Source: Escherichia phage 235Ecol030PP. Taken from it: a DNA stretch of 64,000 bases. This document shows, piece by piece, positions 6,167-10,833 of the stretch; within the stretch, counting starts at the first letter, position 1, and every line of letters begins with the position of its first letter. The DNA is taken from the sequence record PP355091.1; one strand, 5' to 3'. Both the position numbers and the translations under genes were made by a program. The notes under the pieces are model-generated. The model searched no databases. It was not told where the DNA came from and saw only the letters and a program-made list of their open reading frames with translations.

Positions 6167-6706
6167 TTAATTCAAAATAGCTACCACTGCACTACGAGGT
6201 ACTACGCTAAAATCACCTGCATGAACAACGTTCAGAAGTTCAACACCATCTTCAATCCATTGGTCTGTTACCCAACCACAGACCGAAATAAATGGAGTCT
6301 TGATAGCTACCGCATGAGTTAGAAGGTCAGTAGGATCGCATTCTTGGAAGAGAATAAGCTCTGCTTCAAAGACTATAGTTTTAATTACTTCATCATTATC
6401 TAAGCGATGTGCTCGAATCACATAAGCTTTATTCTTATCATGCCAATTACTTTTTGAAAAACTTTTAACCACAAACTCGCCTTCACCAAAAACACTGGTC
6501 AATGCTTTATAACCCAAATTTAGTTCAGTAGTTTTAATTTCAGTTTCAACCAGTTTGTAGGTTTTGCCAATTTCAATAGCGGTAGTCATAGTAGGTTCCT
6601 TAATTTCCAGTGGTTTAACAGGGCATACATAAGTGCTTACAACATCAAAATCAATCAGTTTAGCTACCGGATTTGGTATGTATTCAGGATTATAATTAAA
6701 TTTCAT
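6167..6706 (-). CDS. hypothetical protein, 179 aa (paralog of 5593..6090)
   Basis: ORF; C-terminal block TDQWIEDGVELLNVVH shared with neighbour. Confidence 0.65.
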   Translation of the reverse strand: MKFNYNPEYIPNPVAKLIDFDVVSTYVCPVKPLEIKEPTMTTAIEIGKTYKLVETEIKTTELNLGYKALTSVFGEGEFVVKSFSKSNWHDKNKAYVIRAHRLDNDEVIKTIVFEAELILFQECDPTDLLTHAVAIKTPFISVCGWVTDQWIEDGVELLNVVHAGDFSVVPRSAVVAILN

Positions 6707-6708
6707 AA

Positions 6709-7209
6709 TTATCTCATTTCAATAAAATCTACGAGTTCAGCATGGGATTTACGGAACATTACTTGGTGCCCGCCAATGATAACTTCATCTTCAGGAACTT
6801 CGTATACAGCGAGATAAAATCCTTTAGAAGATAATTCTTCCCGCTCTTCTCGTGTGAACCATCTCATCATATCATATTCGCTAGCGAAAGCAAAATGATA
6901 AAGAGCTATAAACCATCCTGGAATATGATATTCTACTCCAACATAATCTTTCTTGAACTTAGTATTAATTACTATATTAGCGTTTTTAACTAATAGTTTA
7001 TCTTCGTGTGGTAAAGGAATTCTTTTATTATTATCGCTATGATGCATAAAATTAGGTCTGTCATAACCTACGTGTAATAACCACTCTTCACTCCATGAAT
7101 CTATTATACTTCTATATGGCGTTATTTGAACACAAAGATTTCGACGTATTGTTATAGCATCTTCATAATTAAGAATACTAAAAGATGATTCAACACGATA
7201 AATTTTCAT
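6709..7209 (-). CDS. hypothetical protein, ~166 aa
   Basis: start trimmed to ATG preceded by SD GAGGA; the longer track ORF runs into the upstream promoter. Confidence 0.55.
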   Translation of the reverse strand: MKIYRVESSFSILNYEDAITIRRNLCVQITPYRSIIDSWSEEWLLHVGYDRPNFMHHSDNNKRIPLPHEDKLLVKNANIVINTKFKKDYVGVEYHIPGWFIALYHFAFASEYDMMRWFTREEREELSSKGFYLAVYEVPEDEVIIGGHQVMFRKSHAELVDFIEMR

Positions 7210-7234
7210 TTTATTATCCTCAGTAGCTATGGTG

Positions 7235-7266
7235 TTATAATACCACAACTAACCGAGGAAGTAAAC
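7235..7266 (-). promoter_or_regulatory. T4-type early promoter
   Basis: GTTTAC then ~18 nt then TATTAT on minus strand. Confidence 0.55.
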
Positions 7267-7272
7267 AACTTT

Positions 7273-7956
7273 TTATCGTTTTGTTGGAAGAGACAGAGGA
7301 TCGCACTCTTCCTCTGACGGAGCATCTTCAAGACCCATAGCGTATCGCAAAGCATACTTCATCATCAGGATGTCTTTCGCACAGTCATGAATAGAATTAT
7401 GCGCAACGAATCCATCTAAAGTTCCTTTTGGAAGAGGACATGTGGTCATATCACGAACAAGCAGAAGTGCTTCAATTCTGGTACGAATATCACGCTGATT
7501 CCAAAATTTACAAGGTTCTAACTTAAATGTATCAAGCTCATTCTCAGAAACACCATTAAGACGTTGAATATCGCGAATGAGATCGACTAAAATTGGAAAA
7601 TCAAACGACATTCCACGGCACCAGCCTTGAGATTTCCAAGGATCGATATTATGCGCATTGATGTAATCATTAAATTTTACAATACCATCGATAGTGCTTA
7701 CATCTTCATCTGATGGTGCAATATTTTTTCGAGCTTCAGGAGATTGGTTCTTCCACCATTCAATAGTGCTTTTAGTAAAAAGACGATGTCCTTTTTGGCT
7801 TTTTAAATCAAATTTGATTTTAATGCCACGTGAAACTAATTCATCGAATGTTTCAACGACTTCTGGATTAGGGTCAAAAGCAATTACAGCCAAATCAATA
7901 ACAGCTGCTTTTTCGCCGCTTCCCATTGTTTCAAAATCTATAATAAAATCAAACAT
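7273..7956 (-). CDS. dexA: exonuclease A (DnaQ-like DEDDh 3'-5' exonuclease), 227 aa
   Basis: Exo I motif IDFET near N-terminus, Exo III H-x4-D (HNSIHD); size and position match T-even dexA. Confidence 0.8.
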   Translation of the reverse strand: MFDFIIDFETMGSGEKAAVIDLAVIAFDPNPEVVETFDELVSRGIKIKFDLKSQKGHRLFTKSTIEWWKNQSPEARKNIAPSDEDVSTIDGIVKFNDYINAHNIDPWKSQGWCRGMSFDFPILVDLIRDIQRLNGVSENELDTFKLEPCKFWNQRDIRTRIEALLLVRDMTTCPLPKGTLDGFVAHNSIHDCAKDILMMKYALRYAMGLEDAPSEEECDPLSLPTKR

Positions 7957-8159
7957 TAAATTTTCCTTGCTAAATCGCGAATTTGACCTACAGTATAGTC
8001 TTGAATATAAACTTTATTAATGGGCTCATCAATAAATTTTGCCACAGATTCAATGTCTTTTTGTATCTCTTCAAGACTGTATACTATCTTTGAAGCTTTT
8101 TCGCGAATAGTAATATTTTCAGGACCTGGATTTTCTTCAATGACATCTTTAACACTTGT
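7956..8159 (-). CDS. small hypothetical protein (paralog of 8191..8451); start uncertain
   Basis: shares LEEI..D and I.DY..G.I motifs with neighbour; start set at an internal Met to avoid overlap. Confidence 0.45.
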   Translation of the reverse strand, partial: TSVKDVIEENPGPENITIREKASKIVYSLEEIQKDIESVAKFIDEPINKVYIQDYTVGQIRDLARKI

Positions 8160-8190
8160 CATAAGAGATTTAAACTGCCACCAACTTAAT

Positions 8191-8451
8191 TCAATCATTA
8201 ATAACCGCCTTATAAAGATAGCTAATTTCACCTAAAATATAATCACTGATTGTAACAGTTTTTACTTCACCACAAAAGAATTCTAACGCAATCAAATCTC
8301 GTTCAATTTCTTCCAATTGAAGCATTAACTTGCCTGATTCAGTTTTCACATTTTTGCGATTTTTGCTATAAGCTATTTCATAAATTTCGCTTACTTTATC
8401 TTGAAGAAGATAAAACTGATCTTTAGTTATTTCCACGAATAGCTTCCTCAA
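8191..8451 (-). CDS. small hypothetical protein, 86 aa
   Basis: ORF immediately downstream of dda; paralogous to adjacent small ORF. Confidence 0.55.
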   Translation of the reverse strand: MRKLFVEITKDQFYLLQDKVSEIYEIAYSKNRKNVKTESGKLMLQLEEIERDLIALEFFCGEVKTVTISDYILGEISYLYKAVIND

Positions 8452-8457
8452 ATTTAA

Positions 8458-9777
8458 TCATACATAAAATACATCATAACGACCACGGGTAACACCAACA
8501 TAAAGAAGTTGTTGGGCCAATTCAGCATCTGCATAATGAATACAAGGCGTATAAATGAAAGCACGGTCTACAGACATACCCTGAGCTTTATGGAATGTTG
8601 ATGCAGGAAGTGCTTTCACTTTACTAAACTGTGATTTAGCATCCCAAAAATCACTCCATGGAGCTTTTCCGCCTTTGTTCCAATTTTTATAAGTTTCTGC
8701 CGTTTTACCTAAAAATAGGTTAAACTTATATAACTCTTCATCAGATGAAATTATTTTAATCTTTTCACGATAATATTCATCATCGCCATAAGTTTCTACT
8801 GTTAAATCCCAATGACGAATTAGATATTCTCCAGGAACACCACGAGCTTTAACAAATGTTGATGTATATTCTGCTTCTATAATACGAACTAATTGTCCGT
8901 TATTAAAAATAATTTCTGACACAGGCTTTCCATCAATTTTATATGTTTTAATTAATGGTTCCTGCATTACAATAATTTCACCGACAATAAAATCTTTATC
9001 AGTTTCAAAAATCTTTTTACGAATAATGCTATTTAACTTATCAACAGATTTATTCGTAAATGCCATTACGCGATTTTCAAACAAATCATCTAGAGATTTG
9101 ACGATTGAAAAATAATTTACCATAAAATCGCGTAAAGCGGTATCACCAGTAAATCCACGTACTCCATGCCCGTCAACAACTTTATCATAAATCCACTTAC
9201 CGCTACGAACGTCAGTAGCTACATCAATAATAGGAGCATTACTGCGTTTAACTTCAGTGAGTTCACACTGATAAAAATCTTTATGTGTAAAGAATGGACT
9301 GATATAAGCAGTATTTTCTCCTGGGTCAACAGGTCTAATTTGCTTATTATCACCTATTCCAATTATAGTACACCACGGCGGGATAGTTGAAAGCAGAATT
9401 TTAAATAGCTTTCTATCATACATTGACACTTCGTCGCAGATTAATACCCTGCATTTAGCTAAATCTGGTACTTCCTTCTGTTCAAAAAGAACATTTTCTT
9501 CATATGTTACTGGGTTAATTTTAAGAATACTATGAATAGTACTCGCTTCTTTCCCTGATAGTTTTGAAAGAATCTTTTTAGCTGCATGTGTAGGAGCTGC
9601 TAAAATAATACCAGTTTCACCCGTAGATATTAAAGCTTCAATGATGAATTTAGTAAGAGTAGTCTTACCAGTACCAGCAGGTCCATTAATAGTTACATGA
9701 TGTTTCTTTTCTTTAATAGCCCTCATAACGATGTTAAAGGCATTTTTCTGGCCTTCGGTCAAATCATCAAATGTCAT
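8458..9777 (-). CDS. dda: Dda-like SF1B DNA helicase, 439 aa
   Basis: Walker A GPAGTGKTT, Walker B LICDEVSM, SF1 helicase motifs; size matches T4 Dda. Confidence 0.9.
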   Translation of the reverse strand: MTFDDLTEGQKNAFNIVMRAIKEKKHHVTINGPAGTGKTTLTKFIIEALISTGETGIILAAPTHAAKKILSKLSGKEASTIHSILKINPVTYEENVLFEQKEVPDLAKCRVLICDEVSMYDRKLFKILLSTIPPWCTIIGIGDNKQIRPVDPGENTAYISPFFTHKDFYQCELTEVKRSNAPIIDVATDVRSGKWIYDKVVDGHGVRGFTGDTALRDFMVNYFSIVKSLDDLFENRVMAFTNKSVDKLNSIIRKKIFETDKDFIVGEIIVMQEPLIKTYKIDGKPVSEIIFNNGQLVRIIEAEYTSTFVKARGVPGEYLIRHWDLTVETYGDDEYYREKIKIISSDEELYKFNLFLGKTAETYKNWNKGGKAPWSDFWDAKSQFSKVKALPASTFHKAQGMSVDRAFIYTPCIHYADAELAQQLLYVGVTRGRYDVFYV

Positions 9778-10085
9778 CGTAAATTCCCTGCAATTGGTAT
9801 ACTAACAATACGCCCAGTATCTAAAATTCGCTGATATAATCTTTGTGTGTCTACGTCAGGCTTAACATGTTTAACTTCTATTTTATTAAACCAAAACTTG
9901 CGTGGAGTCTCAACTAATCTTGGAATTCCCTTGCCTAAAGCTAGTTGATACTGCTCTTTAAGAGTGGTAAATACTTTGTCAGCAATATTCCATTCAAAAA
10001 ATACAGCAGGACGATGTTCATCAAGTGGAACTGGCGCCGTAAATCCGTCTTTGTCTCGGTAAACTATCGCATACACATAAACCAT
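9774..10085 (-). CDS. hypothetical protein, 103 aa
   Basis: ORF coupled to dda start. Confidence 0.6.
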   Translation of the reverse strand: MVYVYAIVYRDKDGFTAPVPLDEHRPAVFFEWNIADKVFTTLKEQYQLALGKGIPRLVETPRKFWFNKIEVKHVKPDVDTQRLYQRILDTGRIVSIPIAGNLR

Positions 10086-10086
10086 A

Positions 10087-10833
10087 TTATCCTCGGATAA
10101 GTTTAAAAATTGAACAATTTAGCGGGTATCCTCTTTTCAGTTTAAGTTTATCAATAAAAGACAAGTTTTGATACCGCTCTACACCTTGAATAATTTTATC
10201 ACACATATCATATTGCATTTCTGCTTCTGACAACTTTTTCACAATTTTCCAATCCGAGCCTTTAAGAAGAACGTTCAATTTAACAACTTCAGCGCCTTCG
10301 GCTATGCGAGAACCATCAATACGTGCTTTAAGTGCTATAATCCTTAGCTTAATGTCAGAGGTCTGTTTTGATTTAGAAAGCTGAGAAATGTGTTCAATTC
10401 GGTTTTCACGTTTTTTCTGTATAGCTTTAATTTGATTATAAGTCTTTTTGATTTTAGCCCATTTCTTTTCATCTAAATTTAGTTTATGAACTTTTTTCGC
10501 AGATGAACGACCAATTCGCAAAGCAAATAAATCACGCTTTTCAATCAACTCTTCTAAAGTATAATCAGAACGAAATGTATTATACTTTTTCTTTACTGCA
10601 ATAACATTCCCTTTAATGTATCCAACGTTATTATCAAAACGTTCTAATGATAATTTCTCTCCTTCAATACGATTATCAAAAGGTTCTCCCGAGTAAGCAC
10701 AAACTTTCTGATCTAAAATGTTCTTAATGTAATTGAAGTCTAAGTTAAAATCTTTAGAACGTCTTTTTGCAGATGCCTGAGTATGCTCTAAACGACGTTT
10801 AATTTTACGAATTTGATTATTAGACAGCTTCAT
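10087..10833 (-). CDS. hypothetical basic protein, 248 aa (position of T4 srd)
   Basis: Lys/Arg-rich ORF downstream of modA; assignment by position only. Confidence 0.55.
   Translation of the reverse strand: MKLSNNQIRKIKRRLEHTQASAKRRSKDFNLDFNYIKNILDQKVCAYSGEPFDNRIEGEKLSLERFDNNVGYIKGNVIAVKKKYNTFRSDYTLEELIEKRDLFALRIGRSSAKKVHKLNLDEKKWAKIKKTYNQIKAIQKKRENRIEHISQLSKSKQTSDIKLRIIALKARIDGSRIAEGAEVVKLNVLLKGSDWKIVKKLSEAEMQYDMCDKIIQGVERYQNLSFIDKLKLKRGYPLNCSIFKLIRG

Follow-up and report, generated by a model that had tools for sequence, protein, structure and literature searches.

Small genes dexA.2 and dexA.1 of a T4-like Escherichia phage: diverged tandem paralogues, probably remaining from an older array between dda and dexA

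Small phage proteins made in the early or middle period of infection that bind host proteins are exemplified by AsiA and Srd of phage T4. The closest described relatives of the genes considered here are T4 dexA.1 and dexA.2, whose products, respectively Y00G (T4p015, UniProt P32285) and Y00H (T4p016, P39418), have both lent their names to the Pfam family PF26837 (Phage_T4_Y00H_G); hence, it has been recorded before that they are paralogues. RNA and protein of both were detected when the transcriptome and proteome were followed over the course of T4 infection, and dexA.1, dexA.2, dda and dexA all belong to the early-RNA/middle-protein class (PMC9697503 supplement). A single transcription start site ahead of dda.1 is reported to drive the dda.1-dda-dexA.2-dexA.1 transcript (bioRxiv 10.1101/2024.04.04.588121). 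On the biochemical side, the two His-tagged T4 proteins were soluble, and recombinant Y00G, which we equate with DexA.1 because it is 80 aa long, co-eluted with a protein of ~9 kDa that was traced to E. coli by mass spectrometry, a preliminary observation (PMC8076793). Further, DexA.2 was found conjugated to the CBASS cGAS at K5 during T4 infection (PMC10097602), a site consistent with its MEITK start.

The window, i.e., the whole 64-kb stretch of DNA analysed here, is a Tequatrovirus (T4-like) genome: its region 7200-9800 shows 97-98.6% DNA identity to hundreds of T4-type phages of Escherichia, Shigella and Yersinia. As seen in annotated relatives, the minus-strand gene order is srd - dda.1 - dda - dexA.2 - dexA.1 - dexA - motB.2. 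The ORFs at 6167-6706 and 6709-7209, which occupy the motB.1 and motB.2 positions, show no mutual similarity (E 0.05), and a search of Rfam over 7000-10500 found nothing. The locus at the centre of this analysis comprises the following features:

8458..9777, minus strand: dda helicase gene, upstream neighbour of dexA.2 on the same transcript
8191-8436, minus strand: dexA.2 CDS, GTG start, 81 aa, (M)EITKDQ..., 9.5 kDa, pI 4.7
8191..8198, minus strand: 8-nt dexA.2/dexA.1 overlap, ATGATTGA, with the dexA.1 ATG lying within the dexA.2 end in another frame
7956-8198, minus strand: dexA.1 CDS, ATG start, 80 aa, MIELSWW..., 9.4 kDa, pI 4.9
7954..7958, minus strand: TAATG, in which the dexA.1 stop and the dexA start codon have one base in common
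7273..7956, minus strand: dexA exonuclease gene, downstream neighbour, its start coupled to the dexA.1 stop

An initial annotation of this region had placed two ORFs of ~70-90 aa between dexA and dda, with outer limits of 7956 and 8451. The placement stands, and the sizes can be narrowed to 80 and 81 aa; the wider limits arose because the longest open frames of a mechanical ORF list were taken (7956-8231, 91 aa from a GTG, and 8191-8451, 86 aa from a TTG), whereas the real genes are shorter. The narrower limits agree with the T4 RefSeq annotation and with all 80/81-aa homologues in the databases, and the GTG of dexA.2 has a GAGGA ribosome-binding site 8 nt ahead of it (8445-8449). The 8-nt overlap, which is identical in T4 and KMB40, has the form of a translational-coupling arrangement.

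By identity, position and overlaps, the two genes belong with T4 dexA.1 and dexA.2: DexA.1 is 94% and DexA.2 90% identical to its T4 counterpart, each at the same position in NC_000866. The T4 pair has the same lengths, order, 8-nt overlap, dexA.2 GTG and flanking dda and dexA genes as the pair in the window; the differences come down to a handful of substitutions, most of them within helix 1 or the loop between helices 1 and 2. Both proteins also fall within the catalogued families. Their membership in PF26837 is indirect, coming from precomputed matches on proteins 94-98% identical to each of them, because our local copy of Pfam-A, presumably older than PF26837, returned no match for either at E-values up to 10. 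The same family is precomputed on genes in the metagenomic contig L003 and in L020. Against the PHROG profiles, DexA.2 matches positions 1-80 of phrog_1700 (E 2.6e-49) and DexA.1 positions 80-159 (E 9.4e-42), with phrog_5263 giving E-values of 9.6e-8 and 2.1e-4, respectively. The phrog_1700 profile is 160 columns long, so that each protein accounts for one half of it. In phage ime09, the loss of a single A just before the dexA.1 ATG yields a 159-aa fused DexA.2-DexA.1 protein, and a fusion of this type probably gave phrog_1700 its length. In this sense the pair is an ordinary feature, its genes and their relatedness having been catalogued already.

The initial annotation had taken the ORFs for paralogues that arose when a small accessory gene was duplicated locally, and the alignment statistics agree with it: they are true paralogues from a tandem duplication. 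The two motifs that it quoted are present in both proteins, LEEI[QE][KR]D[IL] as LEEIQKDI and LEEIERDL, and I[QS]DY[TI][VL]G[QE]I as IQDYTVGQI and ISDYILGEI. The alignment is collinear from end to end, with 21 of 79 positions identical (27%) and one 1-residue gap; its significance survives compositional adjustment (BLASTP, E 3e-8), the check that the initial annotation had named as able to refute it, and the Smith-Waterman score of 84 compares with 27.8 +/- 5.3 for shuffled sequences (z 10.5), none of 20,000 shuffles reaching it. When 27 DexA.2 and 26 DexA.1 orthologues were aligned separately and the alignments compared with hhalign, they matched over 76 columns with an E-value of 1.6e-11 and a probability of 97.3%. 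A metagenomic protein of 82 aa, P0100, is an intermediate between the two, with its N-terminus and LEEIERD resembling DexA.2 and the remainder resembling DexA.1; as a tblastn query it finds both genes, at two places, in Tequatrovirus genomes. One might still argue that helical, Glu/Lys/Ile-rich ORFs with an AT bias come to resemble one another by chance or composition, or that these ORFs are not genes at all, given that the identity is just 27% and that sequence searches of PDB chains yield noise of the coiled-coil type. We give this view practically no credence, and it is already refuted by the tests run: the composition-adjusted, shuffling and profile-profile statistics are joined by a full-length collinear alignment and by the same predicted folds, while against the non-gene version stand dN/dS values below 1 and the detection of both proteins during T4 infection, where the omics supplement (PMC9697503) and a DexA.2 peptide (PMC10097602) bear out the expression check proposed at the outset. 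We consider it highly likely that dexA.2 and dexA.1 are diverged tandem paralogues within PF26837 and the remainder of an older array.

The AlphaFold2 models of DexA.2 (pLDDT 94.3) and DexA.1 (pLDDT 94.2) both predict a strand-helix-helix-strand-helix arrangement, namely a bundle of three helices with a two-stranded sheet closing it, and superposition of the DexA.1 model with a BFVD entry of the DexA.2 type gives a TM of 0.86 and an rmsd of 1.7 A at 28% identity. Both are mildly acidic proteins of ~80 residues that form a single domain. Small proteins of T4-like phages, among them CC31, CF1, fHe-Yen9-01 and Cronus, make up the best non-trivial matches in BFVD fold searches (TM 0.7-0.88). Against PDB, Foldseek with the DexA.2 model returned generic designed helical bundles, the best at E 1.2.

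No enzymatic or DNA-binding domain was recovered for either protein in Pfam, NCBIfam or PADLOC, the NCBIfam and PADLOC scans giving noise alone, far below the cut-offs. This bears on the labels that these genes carry in GenBank. The 'exonuclease' label that many records give to dexA.1 and dexA.2 has no Pfam or NCBIfam nuclease match behind it, where a domain such as the DEDD/Rv2179c-like one of DexA would be expected, and no nuclease in PDB matches the three-helix fold predicted for these 80 aa. The 'dextranase' label of dexA.2 in RefSeq sets an 81-aa protein against a glycoside hydrolase of several hundred residues, and the best NCBIfam E-values of 0.02-0.09 are noise. Since there is neither an enzyme domain nor a match to a solved structure, both labels are unfounded, being a carry-over from the gene name, and recording them as such is one addition made here.

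Several other candidate identities were likewise rejected. A helix-turn-helix was hinted at by P0107, which is 352 aa long and contains six HTH-like repeats, yet its match covers the DYIxGE motif alone and its E-value of 6.5e-5 is summed over the six repeats; DexA.1 and DexA.2 both run out at the point at which a recognition helix would start, and no HTH family matches them. The dockerin/EF-hand match (PDB 4uyq, E 0.01) is confined to the helix (V)xIxDYxxGxI, and the DxNxDG calcium loop is absent, the loop positions being E, V and K in DexA.1. Sequence searches of PDB also gave the GCN4/M-protein coiled coil (E 0.002), attributable to coiled-coil bias, and mammalian cGAS (E 0.3-0.8), which is below significance. 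PADLOC offered no match to known defence or counter-defence proteins for either protein, and the literature searched assigns them no role in defence or counter-defence.

Turning to the wider distribution, a profile of both paralogues run against 1.84 billion representative proteins gave 10 matches, namely the narrow family and one HTH-repeat protein, and among 50,697 phage records the sequence matches lie in Tequatrovirus and Dhakavirus only. No further copy of the family was found anywhere in the 64-kb window. As defined by sequence, PF26837 is limited to Tequatrovirus, Dhakavirus and one metagenomic lineage; here we extend it by means of synteny, an iterated HMM and fold comparison. The number of small genes in the interval between dda and dexA varies among the relatives surveyed:

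Dhakavirus VR5: 1
Metagenomic contig L003: 1
Karamvirus CC31: 1
Karamvirus CkP1: 2
Jiaodavirus: 1
Winklervirus: 1
Kanagawavirus: 1
Tegunavirus: 2
Mosigvirus: 0, with dda and dexA directly adjacent
Krisch-, Slopek- and Pseudotevenvirus and an Acinetobacter phage: 2-4 interval genes, without sequence link to the family
Aeromonas phage Aeh1: dexA follows a dUTPase gene and dda is not adjacent
Aeromonas phage 44RR2.8t: no annotated small gene between dda and dexA; a 171-nt gap

When the iterated HMM was run over the 675 ORFs of the surveyed loci, the only genes that it recruited were those immediately following dda in CC31, CkP1, TU02, CHI14 and phiR1-RT, and the next candidates occupied the same slot. 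Taking synteny, the iterated HMM and fold comparison together, remote members of the family adjoin dda in Karam-, Jiaoda-, Winkler- and Tegunavirus. The other interval genes gave a different picture in profile comparisons, with the second genes of Tegunavirus (g022) and of Karamvirus CkP1 (0014), and likewise those found in the interval in Krisch-, Slopek- and Pseudotevenvirus and the Acinetobacter phage, yielding hhalign E-values of 0.065-0.85 against the family, like the controls. A 'type B' profile built on g022, CkP1_0014 and CIP9_119 reached a best E-value of just 0.005. The BFVD fold matches to the Tegunavirus, CF1, Cronus and CIP9 proteins (TM 0.6-0.85) suggest that these type B genes may nevertheless belong to the family. 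The confident fold prediction, along with the remote relatives in the same slot, could help in a search for the E. coli protein reported to accompany Y00G.

Within Tequatrovirus itself, 309 records (e.g., those of LF73P3, ime09 and Sf25) have a third copy, an 86-aa gene of the RB14ncORF015c type between dda and dexA.2. In Sf25 it has a weak precomputed match to PF26837; against the family profile it aligns over its full length with an hhalign E-value of 1.2e-4; and an 86-aa Sf25 protein in BFVD, taken as this third copy by its length and phage of origin, has the same fold with a TM of 0.83. It is alike to the pair in the window in its place in the array and in its predicted fold, but at ~11% identity it is much more diverged, and in the window and T4 only its last 38 nt are left. 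When the window and T4 are aligned with ime09, in which the 86-aa gene is retained, a deletion of ~232 nt between two TGATTAA repeats becomes visible, which leaves the following traces:

8454-8460, minus strand: TGATTAA deletion junction, with the dda stop codon inside it
8423..8460, minus strand: 38-nt remnant of the 3' end of the third paralogue, ..IKFEEAIRGNN*, now the dexA.2 leader with its GAGGA

The window and T4 thus lost the third copy by a microhomology deletion. In Tequatroviruses of the LF73P3 type it is dexA.1 that has been cleanly deleted. With the third copy present in some genomes and deleted in others, and dexA.1 lost in phages of the LF73P3 type, the array is gaining and, mostly, losing members, and the dexA.2/dexA.1 pair is very probably what remains of an older array of three genes. 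That the T4 pair is such a reduced array, with the deletion scars visible, is a further addition to the catalogue.

The age of the duplication can be approached through an NJ tree of ~80 columns. In it, DexA.2 and DexA.1 are united with the single-copy genes of Dhakavirus and L003 in one clade at 98% bootstrap support, within which DexA.1 groups with those two genes (93%) and DexA.2 lies outside. Further, DexA.1, Dhakavirus and L003 have in common a 1-residue insertion before strand 2 (DEPINK, DDNISS and GDNVHS, respectively), which is absent from DexA.2 and the outgroup genera. From this grouping and the common insertion, the duplication most likely predates the split of Tequatrovirus and Dhakavirus, as far as ~80 columns can tell, and the dexA.2-type copy would have been lost later in Dhakavirus. 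A recent duplication, specific to Tequatrovirus, with dexA.2 as the fast-evolving new copy and Dhakavirus never having had two, would fit the single copy in Dhakavirus and L003, as well as the fact that two to three copies of PF26837 detectable by sequence are found only in Tequatrovirus. We regard it as quite improbable, since it runs counter to both the tree and the distribution of the insertion, and clean deletions of array members are directly visible.

The members of the pair evolve under looser constraint than their neighbours. In comparisons among four Tequatroviruses, dexA.1 has a dN/dS of 0.06-0.57 and dexA.2 one of 0.17-0.31, as against 0.01-0.02 for dexA and 0.01-0.07 for dda; i.e., purifying selection on the small genes is about 10-fold weaker than on the flanking ones. 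Across genera, the identity of the small protein is 44-51%, compared with 60-78% for Dda and 68-83% for DexA. As for their transcription, a generic scan of the region for sigma-70 promoters and terminators gave nothing above shuffled sequences, and the following candidate was identified by its position:

10186..10220, minus strand: putative middle-mode promoter, with a MotA-box-like TGCAATA (10211-10217), a -10 element TAAAAT (10193-10198) and the start at A10186

The putative start lies 101 nt before the dda.1 ATG. We read this element as the probable middle-mode promoter of the dda.1-dda-dexA.2-dexA.1 transcript because it fits the single start site of T4, with its 101-nt leader and the A at -1.

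What, then, might these proteins do? We tentatively propose that DexA.1 and DexA.2 are non-catalytic binders of a host protein, with the copies diverged in their targets, a reading that has an appreciable chance of being right, if somewhat short of even. It is prompted by the co-elution of Y00G with an E. coli protein, small size, mild acidity, early/middle expression, natural dispensability and fast evolution, along with a copy number of the small genes that ranges from 0 to 3 among relatives. To elaborate, the two would be dispensable accessory factors acting by protein binding rather than catalysis, most likely on a host protein, and the paralogues might have diverged toward different partners or toward variants of one partner, in a mode like that of other small proteins with which phages commandeer or disarm their hosts early in infection. 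They resemble proteins of the AsiA/Srd type in size, early/middle expression, dispensability and fast evolution, and one member of the family, Y00G, reportedly co-purified with an E. coli protein (PMC8076793); in contrast, no relation to that type was found in sequence or fold. Two observations weigh against the binder role: no PDB fold match suggests a mechanism (best E 1.2), and the close linkage of the pair to dda and dexA, which is conserved, could just as well point to joint work with the two enzymes.

The latter thought leads to an explanation in which DexA.1 and DexA.2, singly or as a heterodimer, are accessory subunits or regulators of Dda or DexA rather than being directed at the host. 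It would account for (i) the order dda - small gene(s) - dexA being kept across six genera of the Tevenvirinae, with overlapping stop and start codons; (ii) the expression class that the small genes have in common with dda and dexA; and (iii) the 159-aa two-domain protein that a 1-nt deletion created in ime09, a hint in the Rosetta-stone style. However, that fusion occurs in a single genome, where faulty sequencing may have produced it, Mosigvirus retains both enzymes without any small gene, some Tequatroviruses lack dexA.1, and the small genes evolve about ten times faster than the enzymes; we thus judge a role with Dda or DexA to be unlikely. Returning to the binding of host proteins, a bolder version would see the whole array, with its one to three copies of PF26837 in Tequatrovirus and Dhakavirus and same-fold genes in that slot in other Tevenvirinae, as a fast-evolving family of host binders whose copy turnover reflects an arms race. 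Its members could inhibit the ~9 kDa E. coli protein or a defence component, and the cGAS conjugate might not be a bystander; this version we hold to be rather doubtful. Were the proteins indeed inhibitors of host or defence factors, the natural variation from 0 to 3 copies would provide a ready-made comparative data set.

The history of the DexA.1/DexA.2 family in the Tequatroviruses includes a third member, an 86-aa gene between dda and dexA.2 that is intact in 309 other Tequatrovirus records. In the phage under study only the end of this gene persists, and it now serves as the leader of dexA.2:

8423-8460, minus strand: 3' remnant of the deleted third paralogue (..IKFEEAIRGNN*), forming the dexA.2 leader

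The dda stop codon falls at the deletion junction, which reads TGATTAA on the minus strand, and an identical scar is found in T4 itself. Loss has also affected dexA.1, which is cleanly absent from Tequatrovirus LF73P3 (positions 1489-2425 of its locus), where the DexA.2 C-terminus reads ..AIINV and is directly followed by dexA. Several database DexA.2 clusters (P0020, P0024 and P0033) likewise end in INV; hence, the loss seen in LF73P3 is not unique.

In phage ime09, dexA.2 and dexA.1 read as one ORF:

2461-2940 of the ime09 locus, minus strand: fused dexA.2 and dexA.1, a single 159-aa two-domain ORF

Here, dexA.2 runs on into dexA.1 because one A is absent (GGTTATTAATG becomes GGTT-TTAATG); the two genes may be genuinely fused, or the missing base may be an error of sequencing. 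This fusion is probably the reason why phrog_1700, the PHROG profile matching both proteins, spans 160 columns.

Beyond the genus, the dda-dexA interval holds comparable pairs of small genes:

1750-2204 of the Yersinia phage phiR1-RT locus: two overlapping genes of ~76 aa
1745-2195 of the Citrobacter phage CkP1 locus: two overlapping genes of ~76 aa

In both pairs, membership of the family is detectable only for the dda-proximal gene. The second genes (g022 of phiR1-RT and CkP1_0014) are related to CIP9_119 and resemble the family in length and pattern, but their sequence link to it is not significant (E 0.005). Downstream of dexA, two neighboring ORFs occupy the motB.1/motB.2 positions:

6167-6706, minus strand: ORF
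6709-7209, minus strand: ORF

These are of comparable size but show no mutual sequence similarity (E 0.05). A metagenomic contig with a single-copy family gene (L003) displays a motB Pfam match on the gene at the motB.1 position; thus, the motB region may hold paralogues of its own.

In the GenBank/RefSeq records of relatives, dexA.2 is widely labeled "dextranase" (e.g., NC_000866 T4p016), and both genes often carry the label "exonuclease". Neither their sequence nor their predicted fold supports these labels, which look like propagations from the gene name.

Three database proteins deserve mention. P0105 (81 aa, from the representative library) is a DexA.2 sequence (MKITKNQFYLLQNKINEIYK...) in which almost all E, D, G and R are replaced by K, N or similar residues, a pattern that, judged from the sequence, would be expected of systematic G-to-A change rather than of a natural variant; its source might be, for example, an assembly from bisulfite-converted or otherwise deaminated reads. 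P0103 (112 aa, from a 618-bp ENA contig) couples an unrelated 72-residue N-terminus to the C-terminal 40 residues of DexA.1, an arrangement that probably reflects either chimeric assembly or rearrangement of the phage. The metagenomic P0107 (352 aa), matched over six stretches in the profile search, has an unusual architecture of repeated ~47-residue helix-turn-helix-like units (ISEETKQSAIADYIAGELTRIQICEKYNIG..); it is unrelated, having been picked up solely via a DYIxGE motif.

Finally, a candidate regulatory element lies upstream of dda.1:

10186-10220, minus strand: candidate middle promoter, by sequence match to a reported T4 promoter

Its -10 TAAAAT, A at -1 and 101-nt leader match what is reported for T4, both for the middle promoter and for the NAD-capped start of transcription.
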